Origin: Candidatus Roizmanbacteria bacterium RIFCSPHIGHO2_12_FULL_37_23
GTDB lineage: Bacteria; Patescibacteriota; Microgenomatia; UBA1406; HO2-37-13b
Reading direction: 5' to 3'
Length of the DNA stretch: 64,000 nt
NCBI GenBank assembly: GCA_001788095.1
Contig: MFZX01000029.1
Location: 4,620-68,619, forward strand
Part shown: positions 3,346-64,000 of the stretch, piece after piece
Layout of the letters: each line of letters opens with the position of its first letter
Numbering within the stretch: position 1 is the stretch's first letter
Made by a program: the position numbers and the translations under genes
Notes under the pieces: generated by a model
The model's input: the letters and a program-made list of their open reading frames with translations, nothing else
What the model was told of the DNA's origin: nothing
Databases searched by the model: none

Positions 3346-4019
3346 TTATATTTGATCCTCGAAATAGGGTATATATATCGTCAAAATTACGAGACACGGG
3401 ATATACTTCAAGTTTTGGGACACGGTTAAGTAGAAATCCTCAAAATCATAGAATTGTCATGAAGCAGGTACATGGTGATAAAATCGTGAAAATTACAGCA
3501 CAGAATATAGATCGAGAAAAGTTTCAGAACACAGATGGAATGATAACTCGATTGAACGGTGTAACACTAATAGTCAAAACTGCAGACTGCGTTCCAATAA
3601 TTTTTGCTGATACCTTATCGAGTATCTTGGGTGTTTCGCATCAAGGATGGAGAGGAACACTACTGAATTTACCTCTGAAGATGGTTAATTTTTTGGCTAA
3701 AGAAGGGGTTCAGAAAGAGAATATTATTGTTGCAATTGGCCCGTCAATAAGCGCCTGCTGTTACAAAATATATGGAGATAGATTAGATCTATTTAGAAAG
3801 ACATTTCCTCGTTATGTAGACAGAATTTTTATAAAGAACAACAATGATATATTTCTAAACTTGGGATACCTTGCATATCTGCAACTCGTGGATGCAGGCA
3901 TACAAAAAAATAATATTGACTACTTTCCATTTTGTACAAGTTGTCACAAAGATCACTTTTATTCGTATAATAGAGATAAGTCTACAAAGCGGATGGAGAG
4001 TTGGATTGCTAAGTATTAG
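3342..4019 (+). CDS. pgeF: YfiH/PgeF family (DUF152, peptidoglycan editing factor / laccase-domain) protein
   Basis: Family motifs: QVHGDKIV, KTADCVPIIF, SHQGWRG and CCY in the C-terminal half. 4-nt overlap with the upstream gene. Confidence 0.8.
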   Translation: MIIFDPRNRVYISSKLRDTGYTSSFGTRLSRNPQNHRIVMKQVHGDKIVKITAQNIDREKFQNTDGMITRLNGVTLIVKTADCVPIIFADTLSSILGVSHQGWRGTLLNLPLKMVNFLAKEGVQKENIIVAIGPSISACCYKIYGDRLDLFRKTFPRYVDRIFIKNNNDIFLNLGYLAYLQLVDAGIQKNNIDYFPFCTSCHKDHFYSYNRDKSTKRMESWIAKY

Positions 4020-9803: not shown

Positions 9804-10949
9804 ATGAAATGGCGATTAGTCGCTATTGTTAGTATTCGAACGATATGTCTTTTGACTGTTGCATTTCTTTCAGCACGACTTATTCCATATGCAGGTAATT
9901 TTCCATATAGAGACCTCCTCATAAGTTATAATTTATCTCAAGTACTGTACTCTTGGGCCAATTTTGATGGAGCTCACTATATAAATATTGCTCGAGATGG
10001 ATACCATCAGTTCGATCAAGCCTTCTTTCCTCTTTATCCCTTGATGATTCGTGCTCTCGGAGGACTCTTACATAAAGCTCATCTTTCTGCGGGATTGTTA
10101 GTATCTTATACCGGATTTTTTATTGGTATATATTATTTTCTAAAACTTTTTTCCTTTAAATATGACAAAAAGACAAGCGAATGGATTGTGATTTTTTTGG
10201 TGACGTTTCCTACTGCCTTTTTCTTTACTGCCGTATATACCGAAGGAATATTTCTCATGTTTATATGTTTGAGCCTTTATTTTTTTTATCAAAAAAAACA
10301 TGATAGAGCAGGAATTTTCGCTTTTTTAGCATCACTTACTCGCCTTCAGGGTTTCCTACTGATAATACCTTTCGTTATGTATTTCTATGAGAAGAAAAAG
10401 AATTTTATAAAAAATATTACTTACATGTGGTTCAAGCATCCTATTATATTGATCTCTCCATTTGCTGGACTTGGCGTCTATATGATCTTTCTCCAAGCAA
10501 AATTCGGAAATCCTCTTTATTTTTTTACTTCCCAACCTGCTTTTGGGGCGAATAGGTCAACATCACTCATATTACTTCCACAGGTTTATTACCGTTATCT
10601 ACGTATTTTTTTTACTGCAGATTTCACCTACCAATATTGTGTAGCCATGGTTGAGTTTATTTTTTTCAATTTTGTCTTAATTACAAGTCTTTTGTTTTTT
10701 ATCAATACTTGGCGAAGAAAAGACACATTTGGTATAGGAATTTCAATTTTTTCGCTTGCACACATCCTGCTTCCTCCACTTACGGGAACTTTTTCTTCAA
10801 TACCTCGATATGCTTTATTTGCATGGGCAATGTTTATACTTCTCGCTCAAATAAAGCACGTCGGAATAAAATACATCGTTATAGTTTTGTTTAGTATTCT
10901 TCAGATCATCTTCGCTTCACTTTTCATCCAAGGTTATTTTATAAGTTGA
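9804..10949 (+). CDS. Polytopic membrane protein, GT-C / PIG-V-like mannosyltransferase family (putative)
   Basis: About 10 hydrophobic segments. The N-terminal loop motif WANFDGAHYINIARDGY is typical of PIG-V/GT-C-like glycosyltransferases. Confidence 0.5.
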   Translation: MKWRLVAIVSIRTICLLTVAFLSARLIPYAGNFPYRDLLISYNLSQVLYSWANFDGAHYINIARDGYHQFDQAFFPLYPLMIRALGGLLHKAHLSAGLLVSYTGFFIGIYYFLKLFSFKYDKKTSEWIVIFLVTFPTAFFFTAVYTEGIFLMFICLSLYFFYQKKHDRAGIFAFLASLTRLQGFLLIIPFVMYFYEKKKNFIKNITYMWFKHPIILISPFAGLGVYMIFLQAKFGNPLYFFTSQPAFGANRSTSLILLPQVYYRYLRIFFTADFTYQYCVAMVEFIFFNFVLITSLLFFINTWRRKDTFGIGISIFSLAHILLPPLTGTFSSIPRYALFAWAMFILLAQIKHVGIKYIVIVLFSILQIIFASLFIQGYFIS

Positions 10950-10999: not shown

Positions 11000-11962
11000 A
11001 TGAAAAAAGTAGTTGTTATAGGTGGTGGTACAGGGACGTTTACTGTTTTGAGCGGAATCAAAGAAGAACCTTATGAAATTTCAGTGATTGTCTCTATGAT
11101 GGACAGTGGTGGAAGTACTGGTCGGCTCAGAGATCAGTTTGGTGTATTGCCACCAGGGGATATACGTCAATGTTTAGTAGCTCTTTCAGACGCCCCTGAT
11201 TTATGGCGTAAGCTTTTTCTTTATAGATTTGAAAATGGAGATTTTAGAGGTCATAATTTTGGTAATATTTTCCTAGCTGCGTTAGAAAAAACTACATCCG
11301 ATTATCAACAGGTTATTGATAGTGCTTCATATATATTACAAACAAAAGGAGATGTTATTCCCGTAACCTTTGACAAAGTTCATCTTTGTGCTGATTATGA
11401 GGATGGTGAAACACTTGAATCTGAAGAGCTTATTGATACAGCCTCACACAAAAAAAGTAGGATTTCAAAAGCATATCTTAAGCCTCGAGCAAAGGCTAAT
11501 CCACGAGCGCTCCAAGCTATACATAAGGCAGATTATATTATTATCGGACCTGGGGATCTTTATACGAGTCTTATTCCCAACCTACTCGTAGATGGAGTTC
11601 AGAAAGCTTTAGATAAATCAGAGGCAAAAATTATCAACTTTATGAACCTCATGACAAAATCAGGACAAACAACGCACTATACTGCCTCCGAACATGTTAA
11701 TGATTTAAAGAAATATATTGGAAGGAATATTGATTGTATTTTTGTTAATACAGGCAGAATTCGAGACGACATCCTTGATCATTATAGAAAATATAATGAA
11801 GATATTGTCGAAGACGACCTTGAAATGAATAGCAATATAATTCGTATAGATTTGGTTGCTAATGTGCGTTACAATGCTTCTAAGGCAGATAGGCACCCAA
11901 GGAGTATTCTGCGACATGATTCTGAAAAAGTTCTCAATGCACTTAAAAAGATTTTAACATAA
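11000..11962 (+). CDS. YvcK/CofD-family (UPF0052, gluconeogenesis factor-like) protein
   Basis: VVIGGGTGTFTVLSG, MMDSGGSTGRLRD, PPGDIRQC, IGPGDLYTSLIPNLLV. Confidence 0.8.
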   Translation: MKKVVVIGGGTGTFTVLSGIKEEPYEISVIVSMMDSGGSTGRLRDQFGVLPPGDIRQCLVALSDAPDLWRKLFLYRFENGDFRGHNFGNIFLAALEKTTSDYQQVIDSASYILQTKGDVIPVTFDKVHLCADYEDGETLESEELIDTASHKKSRISKAYLKPRAKANPRALQAIHKADYIIIGPGDLYTSLIPNLLVDGVQKALDKSEAKIINFMNLMTKSGQTTHYTASEHVNDLKKYIGRNIDCIFVNTGRIRDDILDHYRKYNEDIVEDDLEMNSNIIRIDLVANVRYNASKADRHPRSILRHDSEKVLNALKKILT

Positions 11963-12348
11963 TGGTACAAAGCATTAACAAGCGGGTAGAACAACACGGA
12001 AATGCCTTTAAAAACGCTATAAATGGTTTTAAATGGGCTATTCGATCTCAGGCAAACTACCAAATGCATCTTATCATCTCAATTATAGTAATGCTGGCGA
12101 GTTATATATTAAACATTAGTTATTTTGAATGGCTACTTGTTATTTTTGCAATAACAATCGGGCTCGTTGTTGAAGCGATTAATACAGCGATTGAAGCAAC
12201 AACAGATGCGATAACAAAGGAGTGGAAAAAAGAAATCAAAATTGCCAAGGATGTTTCAGCTGCTGCAATGTTAACCTACGTAGTCGGTGTAAGTATTCTT
12301 GCGTTGTTGATTTTTGTACCGAAGATTATTAACTTAATGGTTTATTGA
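11962..12348 (+). CDS. dgkA: Diacylglycerol/undecaprenol kinase (DgkA family)
   Basis: 128 aa, three TM segments, EAINTAIEATTD motif. The start overlaps the upstream stop. Confidence 0.7.
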   Translation: MVQSINKRVEQHGNAFKNAINGFKWAIRSQANYQMHLIISIIVMLASYILNISYFEWLLVIFAITIGLVVEAINTAIEATTDAITKEWKKEIKIAKDVSAAAMLTYVVGVSILALLIFVPKIINLMVY

Positions 12349-55798: not shown

Positions 55799-55872
55799 GG
55801 GCCTGTAGCTCAGCTGGCCAGAGCGCTCGGTTTGCATCCGAGAGGTCAGGGGTTCAAATCCCCTCGGGTCCA
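55799..55872 (+). tRNA. tRNA-Ala (anticodon TGC)
   Basis: Acceptor GGGCCTG/CGGGTCC with the G3:U70 identity pair, anticodon loop TTTGCAT, T loop TTCAAAT. Confidence 0.9.
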
Positions 55873-55924
55873 CCGCACTTTGACAATTAAACAGGAAGAA
55901 CGCAATTAATTAATGCAAATCAAA

Positions 55925-55951
55925 TCTTAAGTTTTGATTTGCGGGATATTG
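55925..55951 (+). other. 5' strand of 27-bp 23S processing stem
   Basis: TCTTAAGTTTTGATTTGCGGGATATTG pairs with 59320-59346 (CAATATCCCGCAAATTGAAACTTAAGA): 25 Watson-Crick pairs plus 2 G.U pairs. Confidence 0.8.
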
Positions 55952-56096
55952 TAATTAAAGCTAGTGGTGAATGCCTAGGTAATTTGAGCCGAGGAAGGAC
56001 GTGTGTATGGACACGATATCGTCGATAAGTCTCCTAACAGACATTACAATCGGCGGTTTCCCAATGGGATAACCCCACTGATAGTAATATCAGTGA

Positions 56097-56115
56097 CCCC
56101 CGATTTTATCGGGGG
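56097..56115 (+). repeat. rRNA hairpin repeat copy 1 (CCCCCGAT TTT ATCGGGGG)
   Basis: Seen directly. 8-bp stem, TTT loop variant. Confidence 0.9.
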
Positions 56116-56171
56116 AGGATACCTGGTGAACTGAAACATCTCAGTAACCGGAGGAAAAGAAATCAAAATGT

Positions 56172-56197
56172 CTCAATTAGACGCAAGTTTAGTTGAG
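56172..56197 (+). repeat. 26-nt hairpin with GNRA loop (CTCAATTAGAC GCAA GTTTAGTTGAG), apparent insertion in 23S domain I
   Basis: 11-bp stem (2 G.U pairs). It lies between GAAATCAA and CGAGATTCC, which are contiguous in the E. coli 23S as I recall it (GAAAUCAACCGAGAUUCC). Confidence 0.6.
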
Positions 56198-56200
56198 CGA

Positions 56201-56231
<31 letters not shown>

Positions 56232-56241
56232 GGAGCCTAAA

Positions 56242-56258
56242 CCCCGATTTAATCGGGG
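56242..56258 (+). repeat. rRNA hairpin repeat copy 2 (CCCCGAT TTA ATCGGGG)
   Basis: Exact 17-mer. Confidence 0.9.
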
Positions 56259-56542
56259 GGTTGCGGGAGTCTGCATACCTACACTTTTTTTCTAGATGAA
56301 TGTCATGGAAAGGACAACCAAAGAAAGTGATAGTCTTGTAGTTAAAAGAAGAAAAGTGTAAGCGGAATTTCCCAAGTACCACGGGACACGGAAAACCTTG
56401 TGGGAAGCTAGGGCGGTCATGCTCTAAGGCTAAATACTCAAATTAACCGATAGTGAACCAGTACCGTGAGGGAATGGTGAAAAGTCCCCCGGCGAGGGGA
56501 GTGAAATAGAACCTGAAACCGCTAGCTAACAAGCAGTGAGAG

Positions 56543-56559
56543 CCCCGATTTAATCGGGG
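56543..56559 (+). repeat. rRNA hairpin repeat copy 3 (CCCCGAT TTA ATCGGGG)
   Basis: Exact 17-mer. Confidence 0.9.
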
Positions 56560-56651
56560 TAATCGCGTGCCTATTGAAGAATGAGCCAGCGAGTTTTCAA
56601 GAGCTGCTTAAGGTTAACCAATAAAAAGTTGGGTAGCCATAGCGAAAGCAA

Positions 56652-56669
56652 TCCCACCGAAAGGCGGGA
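56652..56669 (+). repeat. Second hairpin family copy 1 (TCCCACC GAAA GGCGGGA)
   Basis: 20/21 identical to 56738-56758, including the AA prefix. One A/C mismatch in the stem. Confidence 0.8.
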
Positions 56670-56739
56670 ACGTCTGAATAGGGCGTTGGTAGCTTTTGAA
56701 AGACCCGAAACTGGGTGATCTAACCATGGGCAGGGTGAA

Positions 56740-56757
56740 TCCCGCCGAAAGGCGGGA
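56740..56757 (+). repeat. Second hairpin family copy 2 (TCCCGCC GAAA GGCGGGA)
   Basis: Perfect 7-bp stem with a GAAA tetraloop. Confidence 0.8.
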
Positions 56758-57147
56758 GGAAGCCCGAACCCGTTATCGGTGAAATGATATGGGATGACCT
56801 GTGGTTAGGGGTAATATGCTAATCGAACCCAGAGATAGCTGGTTCTCCCCGAGATATATTTAGGTATAGCCTTCCTGCTCATAAAACACCTGGGGTAAAG
56901 CACTGAATAGTCCAGAGAGTCTAGTACAATTTGGATTAATCAAACTCTGAATACAGTCGTGTTTTGGCGGGAGGAGTCAGACTCACTAGGATAAGCTAGC
57001 GTGGTCGAAAGGGAAACAGCCCAGACTCCCATCTAAGGTCTCTAAATGGTTATTAAGTGGGAAAGGTAGTGAGATTTCAAAGACAGCCGGGAGGTTGGCT
57101 TAGAAGCAGCCATCCTTTAAAGAAAGCGTAACAGCTCACCGTAATAG

Positions 57148-57164
57148 CCCCGATTTAATCGGGG
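57148..57164 (+). repeat. rRNA hairpin repeat copy 4 (CCCCGAT TTA ATCGGGG)
   Basis: Exact 17-mer. Net insertion relative to the recalled E. coli segment CACUGGUCGAGUCGGCCUGCGCGGAAG. Confidence 0.9.
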
Positions 57165-57573
57165 ATGAGGTCTTGCGCCGAAAATGATCGAGGCTTAAAT
57201 AATCTACCGAAGATGGAGATGCTTGTGCTTTGCACAAGTGTGGTAGGGGAGCGTCCCGTGTACGATGAAGATCTACCGTAAGGTGGGTTGGAGTTAACGG
57301 GAGTGAGAATGCTGGCATAAGTAGCGATTCTCCCGCTGAAAATGCGGGATGCCGTATGTCCAAGGTTTCCTCAGCAACGTACATCGGCTGAGGGTTAGTC
57401 GGATCTAAGGGCTCTGCCGATAGGCGAGTCTCGATGTCCAAGCTGTTAATATTCAGCTACTCTTTATAAAGCGTTACTACTTTTATACTAACGAAATCTG
57501 ATAATCGAAGCCTTCTATATGAGGGTCTAAATGGTAAGCACCACCAATTGGTGGGACCGAGCCATGAATGCGA

Positions 57574-57590
57574 CCCCGATTTTATTGGGG
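57574..57590 (+). repeat. rRNA hairpin repeat copy 5 (CCCCGAT TTT ATTGGGG)
   Basis: Variant with a TTT loop and one G.U pair. Confidence 0.85.
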
Positions 57591-57753
57591 GAGCTCGATG
57601 CGTTAAGTTTCCGGGAAAAGGTATAAAAGGAGTTTTATAAGGATCCGTACCGCAAACCAACACAGGTGGACTGGTAGAGTATACTAAGGCAATCGAGTAA
57701 TGGTGGTTCAAGGAACTCGGCAAATCAGCTGGACGTAACTTTGGAGATGTCCT

Positions 57754-57770
57754 TCCCGCCTTTGGCGGGA
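57754..57770 (+). repeat. Second hairpin family copy 3 (TCCCGCC TTT GGCGGGA)
   Basis: Same 7-bp stem as 56740-56757 with a different loop. Confidence 0.7.
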
Positions 57771-57980
57771 CACAGCAAATGATTTCCATCTAACTGTTTA
57801 CCAAAAACACAGCTCCCTGCAAACCGGAAACGGGAAGTATAGGGGGTGAGGCCTGTCCAGTGCCGGTAAGTTAAGGATCGGGGTTAATCCCGATATCACG
57901 AAAGTAATATCGGGAAAGGCTCTGATTCAAGCTCCGGTGAACGACAGCTCTAACTCTGAGAGTTCTAAGGTAGCGTAGTC

Positions 57981-58018
<38 letters not shown>

Positions 58019-58225
58019 TAAGATGGAAACTGTCTTGAACCATTGCTCGGCGAAATTGAAATGGCTGTGAAGATGCGGCCTTCCTGCACCAGGACAAGAA
58101 GACCCCGGGAGCTTTACTGAAGCTTATTATTGACAAGAAATTATTAACTGTCTAGCGTAGGAGGGAGTTTTGGCAGCAATGCCGGACACCAATGAAACAC
58201 CTCTCTTTGATAATTTTGAGTCTTA

Positions 58226-58242
58226 CCCCGATTTAATCGGGG
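58226..58242 (+). repeat. rRNA hairpin repeat copy 6 (CCCCGAT TTA ATCGGGG)
   Basis: Exact 17-mer. Confidence 0.9.
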
Positions 58243-58446
58243 GACAGTAGTAGGTGGTCAGTTTAACTGGGGCGGTTTCCTCCAAAAGGGTAACGGAGGA
58301 GCGCAAAGGTTGGCTTTTTCCGGATGGAAATCGGAATGTACGTGTAAACGCATAAGCCAGCTTAACTGTGAGGAATACAATCCGAGCAGATCCGAAAGGA
58401 GGCGTTAGTGATCCCCCGATCGGTTATGATTACCGGTGGGGCTTAT

Positions 58447-58477
<31 letters not shown>

Positions 58478-58625
58478 GGTCTCCCCTAAGAGTTCACATC
58501 GACGGGGAGGTTCGGCACCTTATGAGCCAAATAATTGGGGTGCCTTCAGTAGCAATACTGATAAAAAAATGTGACTTATAACGGTGGACTCCATAAATGC
58601 CCGATGATAGAATATCATCGTTATT

Positions 58626-58797
58626 ATGGACAATACCGTGGGAAGTCTAACTCGAGCTCAAAAATCTGTTATCATAGGGTCTATTCTTGGAGATGGCTAA
58701 TTTTAGAATTCGTTTTCTAAAATCTAGCTTACCAAGATTACATGATCTTATTGGTAAAAATCTTATACCTTCAATGAAGTATAAACTTGAGTTATGA
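58626..58797 (+). pseudogene. Decayed LAGLIDADG homing endonuclease ORF
   Basis: ATG at 58626 gives MDNTVGSLTRAQKSVIIGSILGDG then a stop. A +1 shift continues NFRIRFLKSSLPRLHDLIGKNLIPSMKYKLEL then a stop. Only the first LAGLIDADG motif region survives. Confidence 0.55.
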
Positions 58798-58811
58798 CCC
58801 CGTAGAGACTT

Positions 58812-58828
58812 CTCCGATTTAATCGGGG
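58812..58828 (+). repeat. rRNA hairpin repeat copy 7 (CTCCGAT TTA ATCGGGG), inside the intron
   Basis: Variant with CTCC on the 5' strand (one G.U pair). It lies just downstream of the endonuclease remnant. Confidence 0.85.
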
Positions 58829-58985
58829 AGAGTTCAATAAAAAATTGAGCTAATACGTCACCCCCAGATTTCAGATATCTGGGTGAAGATATAGTCCGCG
58901 CCATTAGTAATAATGGATTATCATGCGATGTCGGCTCATCGCATCCTGGGGCCGTAGCAGGTCCCAAGGGTTGGTCTGTTCGCCC

Positions 58986-59033
<48 letters not shown>

Positions 59034-59216
59034 ACTCTATCCGGTGCAGGCGTTTGGATTCTTGAAAAGGCTCTTCTCTAGTACGAGAGGACCGAGAAGA
59101 GGGAATCCCTGGTGTATCAGTTGTCCTATAAGGGCATTGCTGAGTAGCTATATTCCTATGAGATAAGTACTGAAAGCATCTCAAGTACGAAGCTTACTTT
59201 AAGATGAGGAATCCAC

Positions 59217-59233
59217 CCCCGATTTAATCGGGG
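59217..59233 (+). repeat. rRNA hairpin repeat copy 8 (CCCCGAT TTA ATCGGGG)
   Basis: Exact 17-mer near the 23S 3' end. Confidence 0.9.
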
Positions 59234-59319
59234 ATAAATCCCCCGGTAGATGACCGGGTTGATAGGCGCATGGTGTAAGTCCAGTAATGGATTTAGCCTA
59301 TGCGTACTAATGGATGATT

Positions 59320-59346
59320 CAATATCCCGCAAATTGAAACTTAAGA
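59320..59346 (+). other. 3' strand of 27-bp 23S processing stem
   Basis: Complementary to 55925-55951. Confidence 0.8.
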
Positions 59347-59353
59347 ATAGCAT

Positions 59354-59374
59354 GTATTACGTATTATGTATTAA
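59354..59374 (+). repeat. Heptamer tandem repeat array (GTATTAN)x3
   Basis: GTATTAC GTATTAT GTATTAA, immediately after the 23S processing stem. Confidence 0.85.
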
Positions 59375-59466
59375 GGATCTAATTCTTTTGACCCCCTGTA
59401 TTTGATCTATTGCAATTTGTTTTATCTTTTATTACTATCAAGAGACATGGGCAAGTTTCCTATGGC

Positions 59467-59515
59467 ATTATACGTAATACCTAAAACGAAATACCTAATA
59501 CCTAATACCTAATAT
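59467..59515 (-). repeat. Heptamer tandem repeat array, reverse orientation, x7
   Basis: The plus strand reads ATTATAC GTAATAC CTAAAAC GAAATAC CTAATAC CTAATAC CTAATAT. The last unit overlaps the topA ATG (59514). Confidence 0.9.
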
Positions 59516-61559
59516 GGATCTAATCATTGTAGAATCTCCGACCAAAGCAAATACATTTAATAAGTATCTTAAGAGCAACGAATATCAGGTCGAAGCTACC
59601 ATTGGTCACGTTCGAGATTTGCCGCAAAAAAAAATAGGAATAGACCTTGAGCATGGTTTCAAGCCAGACTATGTTTTAAACGAGGAAAAAAAAGAAACCA
59701 TTGAAAAAATTAAGAAGCAAGCTCAGAAAGCATCTTCTATCATTCTTGCAACTGACGCGGACAGAGAAGGGGAAGCAATTGCCTATCATATCGCTCAAAT
59801 TCTTGGATATATTAAAGAGGATTGGCCACAGAGCACACTTAAGAAACAGAATAAACTTAAAAGAATTGTTTTTCATGAAATAACCAAAGACGCTTTAGAA
59901 GAAGCTTTAAAATTACCTCGCGAGTTAAATTTTAACTTAATTGACGCTCAACAAACTCGACGTATTCTCGATAGAATTGTAGGATACAAGCTCTCCCCTC
60001 TTTTATGGAAGAAAATAGGAAAGAGATGGCTTTCCGCAGGTAGGGTTCAGACCGTTGCGTTAAGATTTATCGTCGAGAGGGAGAAGGAAATTGAAAAATT
60101 TGCATCAGAAGTCTTCTTTAGGGGTACTGGACGTTTTAAGAGCGACGATACAGGAGATGATGTTCTTGAGGCTCAACTCCATGCAAAAGATGACCAGAAA
60201 TACGAACAAAAATTTACCGTCAATCTATTTGATGGAGATTATACATACACCAAAACGTCTATTCTCAAAAAGGATGTTGAAAGTCTGACTAAAGATATTG
60301 AATCAGATACGTTTTCTATAGAAAGCATTCAAGAAAAAGTTTCTTCTCGAAGTCCTGCTCCTCCTTATATAACATCAACACTTCAGCAAGACGCAGCAAG
60401 AAAACTGGGATATTCTTCCAAGCAGACCATGAGACTTGCTCAGAATTTATATGAAAAAGGTATGATCACTTATCATAGGACTGATTCTGTAACTATTTCC
60501 CCAAAATTTATTCAGCAAGCATCAGAATTTATTAGAGAAAAATATGGAAATCAGTATGTTCTTGAAAGCCCAAGATTATATAAAACTTCTACGAAAAGTG
60601 CTCAGGAAGCTCATGAGGCAATACGACCAACCGATGTTACTCGCCAGATTTCTGGAGAAAAAGGTATAACAAGTAGACACGAGCGACTTTACAGTATTAT
60701 TCTAAATAGAGCACTTGCAACACAAATGAAAGATGCTCAAATCAAAACATTATCGATAAGCATTAAAGGCAAGAAAGGATATATTTTTAAAACAAAGCAA
60801 GAACAAGTAATGTTTGACGGGTATCTTAAACTTTATCCAAAAATTGAATACGGAACAATCACATTTTCCAAGAAAGAAGGAGATGAAATTAGTCTCAATA
60901 ATATAGATTTTGTTGAATCTGCTACACAACCCCCGCCTCGGTATTCTGAGGCATCGCTTATTAAAACACTCGAGAAACGTGGAATAGGGAGACCGTCAAC
61001 CTATGCTCCGATAATTTCTACTATTGAAACGAGAAATTATGTAGAAAAAATGGAGGGTAGATTTTTTCCTACTATTTTGGGTAAAGCTGTGAGTGATTAT
61101 CTCTCAAAAGCCTTTGTTGATCTTTTTACCGTTGATTTTACTGCTGAAATGGAGGATAAGCTCGATAAAATTGCAGAAAACAAACACGATATGATAAAAA
61201 CTCTCACCGAGTTTTATAAACCTCTTGAGAAAAACATCGTTAAAGAACAGAACAGTAAAGGTCATATTGATGTACAAGAAGAAACAAATGAAAAATGCCC
61301 TGAATCTGAACATCCATTAGTTATTCGGTTTTCTAAGTTTGGGAAATTTTTAGCCTGTTCTGATTATCCGAATTGTAAATACACTAAGAATTTTATGCAG
61401 AAAGTGGATCAAAAATGTCCTAAATGTAAAGGCGGGGACATCATTGTGAGGTTTACCAAAAGAAAGAAAAGATTTTATGGTTGTTCTAACTATCCAAAAT
61501 GTGATTTTGCTGCGTGGAAATTGAATGAAATTGAATCTTCATCCCCGTCCTCTGAATAA
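59514..61559 (+). CDS. topA: DNA topoisomerase I
   Basis: Toprim LIIVESPTKA, DADREGEAI, active-site ITYHRTDS, C-terminal Cys4 zinc ribbons (CPKCKGG...CSNYPKC). Confidence 0.95.
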   Translation: MDLIIVESPTKANTFNKYLKSNEYQVEATIGHVRDLPQKKIGIDLEHGFKPDYVLNEEKKETIEKIKKQAQKASSIILATDADREGEAIAYHIAQILGYIKEDWPQSTLKKQNKLKRIVFHEITKDALEEALKLPRELNFNLIDAQQTRRILDRIVGYKLSPLLWKKIGKRWLSAGRVQTVALRFIVEREKEIEKFASEVFFRGTGRFKSDDTGDDVLEAQLHAKDDQKYEQKFTVNLFDGDYTYTKTSILKKDVESLTKDIESDTFSIESIQEKVSSRSPAPPYITSTLQQDAARKLGYSSKQTMRLAQNLYEKGMITYHRTDSVTISPKFIQQASEFIREKYGNQYVLESPRLYKTSTKSAQEAHEAIRPTDVTRQISGEKGITSRHERLYSIILNRALATQMKDAQIKTLSISIKGKKGYIFKTKQEQVMFDGYLKLYPKIEYGTITFSKKEGDEISLNNIDFVESATQPPPRYSEASLIKTLEKRGIGRPSTYAPIISTIETRNYVEKMEGRFFPTILGKAVSDYLSKAFVDLFTVDFTAEMEDKLDKIAENKHDMIKTLTEFYKPLEKNIVKEQNSKGHIDVQEETNEKCPESEHPLVIRFSKFGKFLACSDYPNCKYTKNFMQKVDQKCPKCKGGDIIVRFTKRKKRFYGCSNYPKCDFAAWKLNEIESSSPSSE

Positions 61560-61692
61560 ATGTTATCTTCAAAGGACGAAGATGAAAAACAAAGGCGAGC
61601 TGACTCGCGGAATATGGCACGCAGGTGGCCAAACCGCAAAATAAGCTGCCTACAGCTTGTTCTTCACCCTCGTGACTTCGCTTTCGCTTCCT

Positions 61693-62643
61693 CTAGGAGA
61701 GCACTTCCGACCTCCAGTTCGGTAGCGTCTCCTCAAGTCCCCACACAAGACCGACCTTGGACATGCACCAGATAACGATCCACGAAGGATCGAACTGATA
61801 CCATGCGAGGCCATGCCGAGGACTTCTCGGGAATCTGTGATGGTTGTGATGCCATCCTTCCCCTGCTGAGAAAAGCGCGACGATCCAGTTGTTCATACTT
61901 CGATCGCTCGTAATAAACATTCTGGATCCCCATGTGTGGCAGACTGAGTTCACGCTCCATGTTGCGTGGTTGGTAAGACCAACGCGGACGAGTCCACCCC
62001 AGACGAATGCCTGCCATGCAGAGCCCCAGCTCCACGCATGCGTGTTGCCCCAGTATCCGGAGATTCCTCCAATGAGGAACGGAACCACCAGACTGACGAC
62101 GCACCACAGCGGGAACGTTTTACTGAAAAAGGCCAGCATGGGGTCTTTCGACATGAAGGTGCGCGCGTATCGACGTTCCGCAGGCGTAGGTCCGGTGAAA
62201 AGCCACCACATGTGGGCGTACCAGAACCCCTGGAGCGGGCTATGTGGGTCGCCTTCCTTGTCTGAGTACTTATGGTGGATGGTATGGATAGCCTTCCATA
62301 TCGCAGCAGCTCCCTCAAATGCCATGGAGCCCAGCGCTAGGAAGAATGCTTTCACATACCACTTTGCCTTGAACCCGTCGTGGGTCAGCATGCGGTGGAA
62401 GCCGATAGTGACGCCCAGTCCGGTCAGTTGCCACCCCCCGATAAGGAGAGCTACGTCGAGCCAAGTTGCTCGATCTCCCCACAGGGTGTAGAGGGCGTAG
62501 ACCAGTCCAACAAGGGGCGACACGACCAGAACGAGCACAGCGATCTTGTGTTGCAGGGTCCCCTCCTCGGAGACGTAATCCTGCGTGCTTGCGGAAGACA
62601 CGATAGGTCCTTTCTGCGACTTTTGCGAAGTCACGATTGTCAA
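61693..62643 (-). CDS. Membrane fatty-acid (acyl-CoA/acyl-lipid, delta-9-type) desaturase on a GC-rich island
   Basis: Three His boxes: HRMLTH, HTIHHKYSD and GEGWHHNHHRFP. Four TM segments. TTG start preceded by GGGAG 4 nt upstream. Sampled GC is about 55-57% versus about 33-35% in the flanks. Confidence 0.85.
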   Translation of the reverse strand: MTIVTSQKSQKGPIVSSASTQDYVSEEGTLQHKIAVLVLVVSPLVGLVYALYTLWGDRATWLDVALLIGGWQLTGLGVTIGFHRMLTHDGFKAKWYVKAFFLALGSMAFEGAAAIWKAIHTIHHKYSDKEGDPHSPLQGFWYAHMWWLFTGPTPAERRYARTFMSKDPMLAFFSKTFPLWCVVSLVVPFLIGGISGYWGNTHAWSWGSAWQAFVWGGLVRVGLTNHATWSVNSVCHTWGSRMFITSDRSMNNWIVALFSAGEGWHHNHHRFPRSPRHGLAWYQFDPSWIVIWCMSKVGLVWGLEETLPNWRSEVLS

Positions 62644-62738
62644 CGTACTCCCTAGTCCCGAATGGACAGAGATCTGATTATTATATCAAAGACATAGCAT
62701 GCTATTGATTTTTACTCCTCTATTTATTATGCTTTCTT

Positions 62739-64000
62739 ATGCCTAAATACATATTTATCTCCGGTGGAGTTATTTCTGGTCTTGGGAAAGGTATTACCTC
62801 TGCATCAATAGGCCTACTTCTTAAATCTTCTGGTCATAAAGTCGTTCCTATAAAATGCGAGAATTATTTAAATATTGATGCAGGCACTATAAATCCAATT
62901 GAACATGGAGATGTATTTTTATGTGAAGATGGCACTGAAGCTGATATGGATATAGGAAGCTATGAGAAATTTCTTGACCAAAATATGTCGCGTGGTAATT
63001 TTATTACTATCGGTCAAATTTATAAGTATGTAATAGATAAAGAAAGAAGATTTGAATATGATGGAGAAGATGTTGAGGCGATTCCTCATGTAACAGACGA
63101 AATACTACGCCGTATTGACAAAGTTATTAAAGATCAGGGCGGGGAAATAGGTCTTATTGAGCTAGGAGGGACAGTGGGCGAATATCAAAACGCTTTATAT
63201 TATGAGGCGGCTCGTATGCTTTCGTTTAGAAAGCCAGGAGATGTTTTACATATTCATGTGAGTTATGTTCCTAATCCGCAGCATCTTGGTGAGCCAAAAA
63301 CCAAGCCTGCTCAACTTTCGGTGAGAACTCTAAATTCCTTAGGAATTCAGCCTGATATCCTCATAGCCCGATCACACAAGCCATTAGATAAACGTCGTAA
63401 AGAGCGTCTTTCCTTGTTTTGTAATCTTATGGAAGAAGATGTTATGACAAGTTATGACGTTAGTTCTGTGTATGAAATTCCCTTGATTTTACACAAACAA
63501 AATCTTGCTGCAAGAATTTTACTTAAACTTAACATTAAGCATATTCAACCTCAACTAAACGAATGGAATAAATTTGTTGAAAAGGTACAGGTAAAAAAGA
63601 ATAAGAAAATTCGAATAGCAATTGTTGGTAAGTATTTTGCCACAGGTGAATATCAATTACGTGATTCCTACGCAGCTTTATTCGATGCTATAGATCATGC
63701 AAGTTGGGCGCACAATATTGAATCTGAAGTTGATTGGATTGACGCTGAAAAGGTGGAAAAAGAAGGCATAGAAAAATTTATACAAAAAGTAGATGGCATT
63801 ATTGTTCCAATAGGTTGGGGCGAGCGTGGAGCTGAAGGTATGATTCAAGCAGCGAGCTATGCTCGAGAGCATAAAATTCCTTATCTAGGTCTATGTTATG
63901 GTATGCAGTTGGCGGCTATAAGCTTTGCCAGAGATGTATTGGGATTGCACAAAGCAAACACTGAGGAAAACGATCCAAATACTCCAGATCCTATTATTCA
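62739..64000 (+). CDS. pyrG: CTP synthase, 3' end beyond window
   Basis: Hand translation from ATG 62739: MPKYIFISGGVISGLGKGITSASIGLLLKSSGHKV...DAGTINPIEHGDVFLCEDGTEADMD. The frame is open to the window end, so it is not in the ORF track. Confidence 0.95.
   Translation, partial: MPKYIFISGGVISGLGKGITSASIGLLLKSSGHKVVPIKCENYLNIDAGTINPIEHGDVFLCEDGTEADMDIGSYEKFLDQNMSRGNFITIGQIYKYVIDKERRFEYDGEDVEAIPHVTDEILRRIDKVIKDQGGEIGLIELGGTVGEYQNALYYEAARMLSFRKPGDVLHIHVSYVPNPQHLGEPKTKPAQLSVRTLNSLGIQPDILIARSHKPLDKRRKERLSLFCNLMEEDVMTSYDVSSVYEIPLILHKQNLAARILLKLNIKHIQPQLNEWNKFVEKVQVKKNKKIRIAIVGKYFATGEYQLRDSYAALFDAIDHASWAHNIESEVDWIDAEKVEKEGIEKFIQKVDGIIVPIGWGERGAEGMIQAASYAREHKIPYLGLCYGMQLAAISFARDVLGLHKANTEENDPNTPDPII

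Follow-up and report, generated by a model that had tools for sequence, protein, structure and literature searches.

A GC-rich desaturase gene flanked by conserved candidate RNA structures at a pyrG-adjacent site in Roizmanbacteria

How can a single gene stay far richer in GC than the genome around it, and for how long has it done so? These questions are raised by an island in Candidatus Roizmanbacteria bacterium RIFCSPHIGHO2_12_FULL_37_23, a member of the candidate phyla radiation (CPR), which lies near the end of a 64,000-nt stretch of contig MFZX01000029.1 (hereafter the window; coordinates are those of this stretch). The island sits between topA and pyrG and carries one gene, on the minus strand, for a membrane fatty-acid desaturase of the SCD1 type. 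We consider it probable, with some reservation, that the island is an old module of ~1.2 kb that was horizontally acquired and kept at one pyrG-adjacent site, with its GC-richness maintained and its expression subject to RNA-level control.

The island and its desaturase gene

In 200-nt windows, the GC fraction rises from 0.32-0.36 at 61000-61500 to 0.54-0.605 at 61600-62600 and returns to 0.33-0.38 past 62650, delimiting a GC-rich block of ~1.1 kb with sharp edges in a window whose overall GC is 36.6% and whose other kilobases, the 23S rRNA apart, never exceed 0.41. The desaturase gene has a GC of 0.568 (z = 9.9) and a GC content at third codon positions (GC3) of 0.677 (z = 13.5) relative to the 47 other open reading frames (ORFs) of at least 150 aa in the window (GC 0.357 +/- 0.021, GC3 0.268 +/- 0.030). 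It is the sole ORF in the block with database support; the remaining ORFs overlap it in other frames, as is expected in GC-rich DNA. An earlier note on this DNA had described a sharp single-gene island between topA and pyrG with one credible gene at 61693-62643 on the minus strand, and the GC profile, the z-scores and the overlap of all other ORFs with this gene bear out both statements.

We found that the protein matches Pfam FA_desaturase (PF00487; E = 1.9e-19, 70.9 bits against a cut-off of 29.7, aa 60-284) and that its best solved relatives are mouse and human SCD1 (PDB 4ymk, E = 5e-29; 4zyo, E = 4e-27). Its motifs HRMLTH, HTIHH, NSVCH and HHNHH align with HRLWSH, HRAHH, NSAAH and HNYHH of 4ymk, and all four His/Asn ligand motifs are kept in four CPR orthologues. 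The positions are as follows.

61693..62643, minus strand: desaturase ORF in its longest form, with 316 aa counted from TTG 62643; SCD1-type di-iron membrane fatty-acid desaturase by Pfam and SCD1 structures
62380..62397, minus strand: histidine box 1, HRMLTH, aa 83-88; kept in the four CPR orthologues and in Chloroflexota-type outgroups
62272..62286, minus strand: histidine box 2, HTIHH, aa 120-124; from the SCD1 and orthologue alignments
61936..61950, minus strand: NSVCH (N-x3-H), counterpart of NSAAH in SCD1; from the same two alignments
61837..61851, minus strand: histidine box 3, HHNHH, aa 265-269, within GEGWHHNHHRFP; from the same two alignments

The identification of a delta-9-type membrane desaturase with three histidine boxes, likewise made in the earlier note, is confirmed by Pfam, by the SCD1 alignment and by the full set of metal ligands. 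A Kyte-Doolittle scan revealed three hydrophobic stretches (aa 29-56, 64-82 and 169-199), which would be compatible with the SCD1 type, whose four transmembrane helices form two hairpins. The NCBIfam equivalog model for DesA (NF049918) gave partial matches only, at 70.1 bits against its cut-off of 400. Many homologues carry the JGI annotation stearoyl-CoA delta-9 desaturase, and the GenBank label of this protein is "hypothetical protein" (OGK15333.1 and three further accessions, from four metagenome-assembled genomes (MAGs)); re-annotation would be a small practical gain. By its sequence the gene is an intact, conserved SCD1-type (delta-9-like) membrane desaturase, with a substrate and regiospecificity that are predicted from family membership. 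Mycobacterium DesA3 is an example of a bacterial acyl-CoA desaturase, and K00507 is the KEGG number for such bacterial relatives of SCD1. A literature search for work linking CPR or Patescibacteria with fatty-acid desaturases found none, its matches being carotenoid desaturases or phage auxiliary genes.

Age, origin and persistent GC-richness

The island is not an isolated import. Among the 7,290 homologues scored, only three stand closer to the window protein than background: P0002 (64% identical), P0003 (56%; GCA_025449735.1) and P0004 (54-57%). The identity search, which spanned 5.8 billion clusters, found no allele between 64% and 99.7% identity, and the best non-CPR match is 55% identical. 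All three relatives lie next to pyrG and divergent from it, in DNA of 39-42% GC with the same rplS-UPF0102-MscL-like backbone. In a neighbour-joining tree of 85 sequences, the window protein and these three are monophyletic in 100 of 100 bootstraps, and the four-member clade has a derived C-terminus, LVWGLExTLPxW. The earlier note had named membership in a vertically inherited clade of low-GC relatives as contrary to its proposal, and the protein does fall in a clade, with 100% bootstrap, of low-GC CPR relatives (GC 0.39-0.42).

The clade sits among sequences that, so far as they bear names, belong to Chloroflexota (Ardenticatenales, Dehalococcoidia, Ktedonobacteria, Roseiflexaceae and Thermomicrobia), with one cluster among the top matches named Thermoplasmatota (a MAG), and its nearest outgroups lie on contigs of 68-77% GC, their desaturase genes themselves having 64-74% GC. 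A single-protein search of genome contigs missed the four-member clade; its matches, at 35-49% identity, were to Thermomicrobia, Chloroflexia, Solirubrobacterales and other CPR. In the tree, the desaturases of Saccharibacteria, Taylorbacteria and further Patescibacteria take another position, close to Solirubrobacterales, which suggests separate acquisitions. We also considered a phage vector and rejected it: the best phage matches, from Acinetobacter and Pelagibacter phages, are 28-31% identical, and a scan of viral contigs did not find the 3' element described below.

The locus itself is authentic. The TopA (OGK15324.1) and PyrG of the window are identical to the proteins of Candidatus Roizmanbacteria bacterium RIFCSPLOWO2_02_FULL_37_19 and sister Rifle-aquifer MAGs, and 24 contigs, drawn from many ENA assemblies, carry a 302-aa form of the desaturase, in each case in the order topA, desaturase gene, pyrG. 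For the ten of these contigs that were compared with the window, identity is 99.9-100% across as much as 9 kb, both junctions included, as in a clonal population. The chimeric assembly for which the earlier note had wanted both junctions checked is thus excluded, given ten independent assemblies at this identity and four GenBank MAGs.

Beyond this population, orthologous loci were found in three other lineages, L096, L011 and L012. Two further relatives, L111 and L112, hold an empty site, with the order topA-X-pyrG, no desaturase gene and 23-37 nt between X and pyrG, where X is a hypothetical protein of 515-566 aa. PyrG identity to the window is 77% for L111, 73% for L112 and 69-71% for L011 and L012, and TopA of L111 is 68% identical. 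In L096 the order is X, 3' element, desaturase gene, pyrG, which places the module exactly between X and pyrG; its X (1772-2191) is 77% identical to that of L111 (4452-5999). Collectively, composition, GC-rich Chloroflexota-type outgroups and empty sites support the foreign origin that the earlier note had proposed, and its two further suggestions, that the acquisition was recent and possibly came from a host, are not supported. The coding part is most likely of horizontal origin, from what its sequence relatives suggest to be a Chloroflexota-type donor.

How old, then, is the module, and why is it still GC-rich? The GC3 of the desaturase gene exceeds that of its neighbours in every lineage: 0.68 versus 0.25-0.27 in the window, 0.60 versus 0.39 in L096, 0.53 versus 0.44 in L011 and 0.52 versus 0.34 in L012. 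At conserved residues, the third bases of four-fold codons show no excess identity in any desaturase pair, as for pyrG between these hosts; for the window and L096 the observed identity is 0.28 and the expected 0.24 +/- 0.05. Even in this closest pair, in which the PyrG N-termini are 86% identical, the desaturases are only 57% identical. Deviant composition and empty sites would suit a recent genomic island, but diverged orthologues at the same site and saturated four-fold sites do not. The module is common to lineages whose PyrG is 69-71% identical, at one site, with synonymous sites saturated and no relative above 64%, and these observations leave the description of the transfer as recent without support.

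Neutral amelioration from a single old insertion would erase the GC3 excess, so either the silent-site GC has been maintained or alleles have been re-imported. GC-richness looks maintained, by selection or a biased process, the alternative being re-import from GC-richer carriers, and we make no choice between the two. At five other CPR loci (L063, L089, L091, L078 and L088), from Saccharibacteria, Taylorbacteria and unclassified Patescibacteria, the GC3 of the desaturase gene is likewise above its flanks, by 0.11-0.19, L087 being the exception, so that raised GC3 appears as a recurrent CPR pattern and not one peculiar to the window.

Conserved non-coding structures and the surrounding locus

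Conservation of the module extends beyond the coding region on both sides. The features of the start region, of the 3' region and of the neighbouring genes are as follows.

62680..62688, minus strand: extended -10 element TGATATAAT, invariant in the four-lineage alignment; in the AT-rich spacer common with the divergent pyrG
62625..62636, minus strand: 5' arm TCGTGACTTCGC, starting 7 nt after TTG 62643; complementary to the 3' arm
62608..62615, minus strand: Shine-Dalgarno-like AGAAAGGA, ending 6 nt before GTG 62601; kept in four lineages
61670..61681, minus strand: 3' arm GCGAAGTCACGA, 12-23 nt past the stop codon; partner of the 5' arm
61531..61680, minus strand: structured 3' element of ~150 nt, from the four-lineage alignment, RNAalifold and the fold z-score
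61657-61668, minus strand: strand A, GGUGAAGAACAA; pairs with strand B over 12 bp
61643-61658, minus strand: hairpin AAGCUG-UAGG-CAGCUU within the 3' element
61585-61608, minus strand: terminator-like hairpin GCGAG-UCAG-CUCGC followed by a U run, from the terminator scan
61574-61592, minus strand: strand B, UUGUUUUUCAUCUUCGUCC; pairs either with A or with A'
61536-61550, minus strand: strand A', GGACGGGGAUGAAGA; pairs with strand B in a hairpin of 18-21 bp
61536..61559, plus strand: last 7 topA codons and stop (SSSPSSE*), encoded by strand A' together with the loop of the 3' element
59514..61559, plus strand: topA, DNA topoisomerase I by Pfam; host backbone, convergent with the desaturase gene
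62739..64000, plus strand: pyrG, CTP synthase by Pfam, cut by the window end; divergent from the desaturase gene and its constant neighbour in all four lineages

The mean column identity of the 3' element is 75% over four lineages whose desaturases are 52-64% identical, and its core in the window and in L096 shares ~80% nucleotide identity, far above the silent sites of the desaturase gene. RNAalifold gives 44 pairs, nine of them with compensatory changes; helix A:B is 100% paired in 4/4 sequences, the B:A' hairpin has three compensatory pairs, and one alignment column covaries across A, B and A'. The G-U pairs in the element favour an RNA on the desaturase gene's own strand, and the fold z-score of the window copy is -5.3. 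Within the element, a scan for intrinsic terminators found GCGAGTCAGCTCGC followed by CTTTGTTTTT at 61585-61608 on the minus strand, against a high scan background (2 sites versus 1.7 expected), and an equivalent hairpin with CUUUUGUUCU is present in the other three lineages.

The element appears to be private to this module. Rfam gave no match that reached the gathering threshold and, below it, only snoRNA and miRNA matches at chance level (E of at least 0.15), and a covariance model of the element (R1) found it only beside the four desaturase genes, no additional copy turning up in the window or among 16 loci that included other CPR and Chloroflexota desaturase loci. When JGI metagenome contigs were scanned with TTTGTTYTYCATCTTC-N15-45-GGATGRAG, all 11 matches were due to chance, with no full element and no desaturase, and a scan of viral contigs likewise gave only chance matches. 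We rejected a small ORF as its explanation, since the alignment indels are not multiples of three and the corresponding frame in L096 appears to contain a stop (judged by eye), and a repeated or mobile element, since these scans found no copies beyond the four desaturase loci. Nor is it a leader for a downstream gene, as the next gene is always convergent and no ORF follows on the same strand.

A second, predicted pairing would link the start region to the 3' region. The 5' and 3' arms form a perfect 12-nt inverted repeat, which lies inside the island and brackets the coding region. The 3' arm stands at most ~4 nt upstream of strand A in four lineages, the two nearly abutting in the window. 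Compensatory changes keep the arms paired in L012 (CCACGACUUC with GAAGUCGUGG; CCACGACTTC/GAAGTCGTGG) and in L011 (CGUCAC with GUGAUG), and in L096 ~9 bp are paired, one G-U pair included. An RNAduplex run on long flanks gave a whole-duplex energy that was not significant; the case for the pairing lies in the perfect repeat and the compensatory changes. The earlier note had seen no integrase and no clear direct repeats around the gene, which stands, with this inverted repeat as an amendment. Integrase, tRNA, direct repeats and target-site duplication were all looked for at the insertion site, and none was seen.

As to the start of the gene, the gene callers place it at GTG 62601, which gives the 302-aa form and is preceded by a conserved AAAGGA. 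In four lineages AGAAAGGA lies 6-14 nt before the called GTG or ATG start while its frame relative to TTG varies, and this makes it look like a Shine-Dalgarno site. The TTG, at 62643 in the window, is 39, 42, 45 or 54 nt upstream in the four lineages, always in frame and stop-free; with indels in multiples of three and no stops, the interval looks like coding sequence. TTG 62643 and GTG 62601 thus stand side by side as candidate starts, each with support in the sequence. Upstream, a generic two-hexamer scan found no full sigma-70 site, and TGATATAAT therefore counts as a conserved -10 only. Collectively, the conserved non-coding parts point to control at the RNA level, be it of expression or of transcript stability, a function that we infer for the RNA elements from their conservation and pairing.

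On the other side of the spacer, in L011 (~3766-3780) and L012 (~9875-9890), a TATAAT box ends 6 nt before the pyrG ATG (GGTATAATTAAACatg and GTTATAATTGAACatg, respectively), which suggests that in these two lineages the pyrG mRNA may be leaderless or nearly so, now that the module separates pyrG from the topA-X operon.

At the topA junction, the end of TopA reads ...NEIESSSPSSE* in the window and ...NEIESADKAK* in L111. This comparison indicates that a deletion in the window lineage removed X (515 aa in relatives) and fused the end of topA to the 3' element, by which TopA gained a new 7-residue C-terminus.

Further out, a large serine recombinase (Resolvase, Recombinase and Zn_ribbon_recom domains, 518-565 aa) lies ~3.3 kb beyond pyrG, five genes from the desaturase gene and outside the window, at 4600-6650 in L001, 2311-4008 in L002 and 625-2181 in L004. 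An HTH_17 excisionase-like gene precedes it in some assemblies, and the DNA on its far side differs between otherwise clonal assemblies, a difference that points to an integrated or invertible element with more than one form in the aquifer.

Elsewhere the window consists of typical CPR core genes: a mur/fts cluster, ileS, gatCAB, dnaE, an F-type ATP synthase and a 23S rRNA. Within the mur/fts cluster, a DAGK_prokar ORF (diacylglycerol/undecaprenol kinase; 11962-12348, plus strand) is the sole other lipid-related gene seen in the 64 kb. The 23S rRNA (55944-59329, plus strand) is 3,386 nt long against a 2,925-nt Rfam model and so carries ~460 nt of insertions, one of which may be marked by a drop in GC (to 0.335-0.35) at 58600-58900; in the relative L111, topA has a LAGLIDADG ORF just ahead of it, which suggests rRNA introns in the group. 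A tRNA-Ala(UGC) directly precedes the 23S rRNA (region 55799-59514), with the ATP synthase genes upstream and topA downstream. Neither 16S nor 5S rRNA was detected anywhere in the window, so the rRNA genes appear to be unlinked.

Proposed history, rival explanations and known systems

In summary, we propose a module composed of a promoter, a 5' region, the SCD1-type desaturase gene and a structured 3' untranslated region (UTR). A Roizmanbacteria-like CPR lineage would have taken the coding part from a GC-rich donor, most likely of the Chloroflexota type, and at least four divergent lineages would have kept the module directly upstream of pyrG, possibly with some exchange of alleles. The enzyme would most likely use O2 and an electron donor to add a delta-9-like cis double bond to saturated acyl chains, which are probably obtained from outside the cell, and its role may be the tuning of membrane fluidity. 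Synonymous sites have fully turned over since the orthologues split and yet are GC-rich, so that the GC-richness would be no relic of a fresh transfer and some force would keep it. The clamp formed by the two arms, together with the two-helix 3' element, may set translation or transcript stability; a response of these elements to temperature is speculative and is suggested by analogy with the mRNA stability of cyanobacterial desaturases.

More tentatively, and with doubts that outweigh our confidence, the clamp and the two-helix toggle may represent an undescribed class of structured RNA that responds to a physical or chemical cue by setting translation or the stability of the transcript. Temperature is the obvious candidate cue for an RNA element of a desaturase, and selection for RNA-level behaviour may explain the GC-richness of the whole transcript in a 37% GC genome. 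If this sensor exists, the locus would show selection keeping a gene compositionally foreign over a long time in an ultra-small symbiont.

Several observations weigh against the account of an old module under RNA-level control. No electron-donor partner (reductase, cytochrome b5 or ferredoxin) was seen in the 64-kb window or in the 10-kb flanks, and no genes for acyl-CoA or acyl-lipid handling and no fab or pls genes were visible in the window. The RNA structure rests on four sequences that form two pairs of relatives, and a shuffle control of helix A:B was not significant (74/500). The sister relation of the CPR clade to an Ardenticatenales-like group has 54% bootstrap in a tree with a weak backbone, which makes the donor phylum probable and not proven. 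Quartet-informative sites (11:4:0) favour the window with L011 over the host and pyrG grouping, and L011 and L012, with PyrG 85% identical, have desaturases 57% identical; since the desaturase tree is incongruent with host genes, simple vertical descent after one insertion is not the whole story. Finally, the GC3 excess is +0.41 in the window and +0.09 to +0.21 in the other three, which a later arrival of the window allele would also fit.

In one rival, which we judge unlikely, the module is old and the window copy was recently swapped in by homologous recombination from an unsampled, GC-richer CPR relative; its high GC would then be a young relic. In its favour, the GC3 excess is larger in the window than in any of the other three, the desaturase tree is at odds with the grouping by pyrG and by the 3' element, and presence is patchy, the site being empty in two lineages whose PyrG is nearer to that of the window (77% and 73%) than is that of L011 and L012 (69-71%); CPR genomes of 57-63% GC with desaturase genes also exist (L078 and L088). 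However, the search of 5.8 billion clusters produced no candidate donor allele, nothing lying between 64% and 99.7% identity, the GC3 in L096 is likewise high at 0.60, and the 5' region and 3' element of the window resemble those of its closest host relative, L096, so that the exchanged tracts must end at the coding region. A recent direct transfer from a GC-rich host, whether an actinobacterium, a proteobacterium or a member of the Chloroflexota, would account for the strong compositional contrast, the sharp boundaries and the GC-rich nearest non-CPR relatives, but it is very improbable: outside CPR no match exceeds 55% identity, saturation of the synonymous sites holds for every comparator, and three low-GC CPR lineages have the clade, C-terminus, insertion site, promoter and UTR elements in common with the window. 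An assembly or binning chimera, with GC-rich reads misjoined into a low-GC contig, has only the sharp compositional edges in its favour, and we regard this as almost certainly wrong, since the junctions recur in four GenBank MAGs and in 24 contigs (named under two schemes or more), the 10 checked being 99.9-100% identical, and orthologous loci exist in three other lineages.

A mobile cassette, integron-like or bounded by inverted repeats, could have been acquired independently in each lineage by site-specific insertion upstream of pyrG. Its outline is there in one ORF followed by an imperfect palindrome of ~150 nt, with a promoter in AT-rich, host-like DNA, in the 12-nt inverted repeat around the ORF, in the patchy distribution with clean empty sites, and in the serine recombinase of the same contigs, ~3.3 kb beyond pyrG. 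Four housekeeping genes, however, separate that recombinase from the island, no integron integrase or tyrosine recombinase was found, and each locus has one copy of the element. The R' consensus of attC sites is GTTRRRY, which the core GTTCTTC does not fit, so the element does not qualify as an integron cassette. With no target-site duplication, an inverted repeat that lies inside the island and not at its ends, G-U pairs that favour an RNA on the gene's own strand, and a 3' element found nowhere else (window, 16 other loci, JGI metagenomes and viral contigs), a cassette is very improbable. Vertical inheritance, by descent from an ancestor that CPR and Chloroflexota share, draws on the Chloroflexota as the closest outgroups and on some published rooted trees that put CPR near Chloroflexota. 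The distribution is patchy, however, with empty sites in close relatives, the clade counts only four of the 7,290 homologues, the composition of the gene departs strongly from that of each of its four hosts, and other CPR desaturases lie elsewhere in the tree, near Solirubrobacterales, which makes shared ancestry extremely improbable.

We therefore return to the horizontally acquired and long-kept module as the probable history. The enzyme is another member of a known family and already deposited; what is notable at this locus is the shared site, the lasting GC-richness and the private structured RNA. An inability to make membrane lipids is reported for CPR bacteria (PMC7242380), and a long-retained, O2-dependent desaturase would mean that the Roizmanbacteria group remodels scavenged acyl chains and that its cells meet oxygen. 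The conserved UTR structures provide a compact candidate for RNA-level regulation in a group whose gene regulation is almost unexplored, and the locus offers a natural test of amelioration, with one foreign gene, one site, four hosts and matching empty sites.

Parts of the module have counterparts in known systems. In Staphylococcus aureus, the 5' UTR of icaR mRNA base-pairs with its 3' UTR (PMC3868564). The likeness is a 3'-UTR stretch complementary to the translation-initiation region of the same bacterial mRNA; here, by contrast, the 5' arm lies just after TTG and ~25 nt before GTG, not on the Shine-Dalgarno site, and the pairing is predicted from sequence. Cyanobacterial desaturase transcripts come under low-temperature control through mRNA stability (Los and Murata 1994, as cited in PMC3941260). 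The likeness is a membrane desaturase controlled partly at the mRNA level, which gives a rationale for structured UTRs, and it is one of analogy only, with no sequence or structural similarity to the window element. Like riboswitch and attenuator platforms, the 3' element offers alternative pairings, strand B closing either a multi-hairpin core of ~70 nt with A or a long hairpin with A'; it differs from them in lying 3' of its gene, in belonging to no Rfam family and in suggesting no ligand. SCD1 (4ymk and 4zyo) and the window protein have in common the Pfam FA_desaturase family, the HX4H, HX2HH, NX3H and HX2HH ligands, a length of ~300 aa and long hydrophobic stretches, while identity over the aligned core is ~30% (judged by eye). 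Chloroflexota-type relatives bear a long C-terminal tail, whereas the window protein ends in the clade-specific LVWGLExTLPxW without one. In the model of Lawrence and Ochman, a transferred islet is said to ameliorate toward host composition. The island resembles such an islet as a single gene with deviant GC and GC3 between backbone genes and with empty sites in relatives, but its same-site orthologues keep a GC3 of 0.52-0.68 despite saturated synonymous divergence, which suggests an amelioration that has been stalled or reset.

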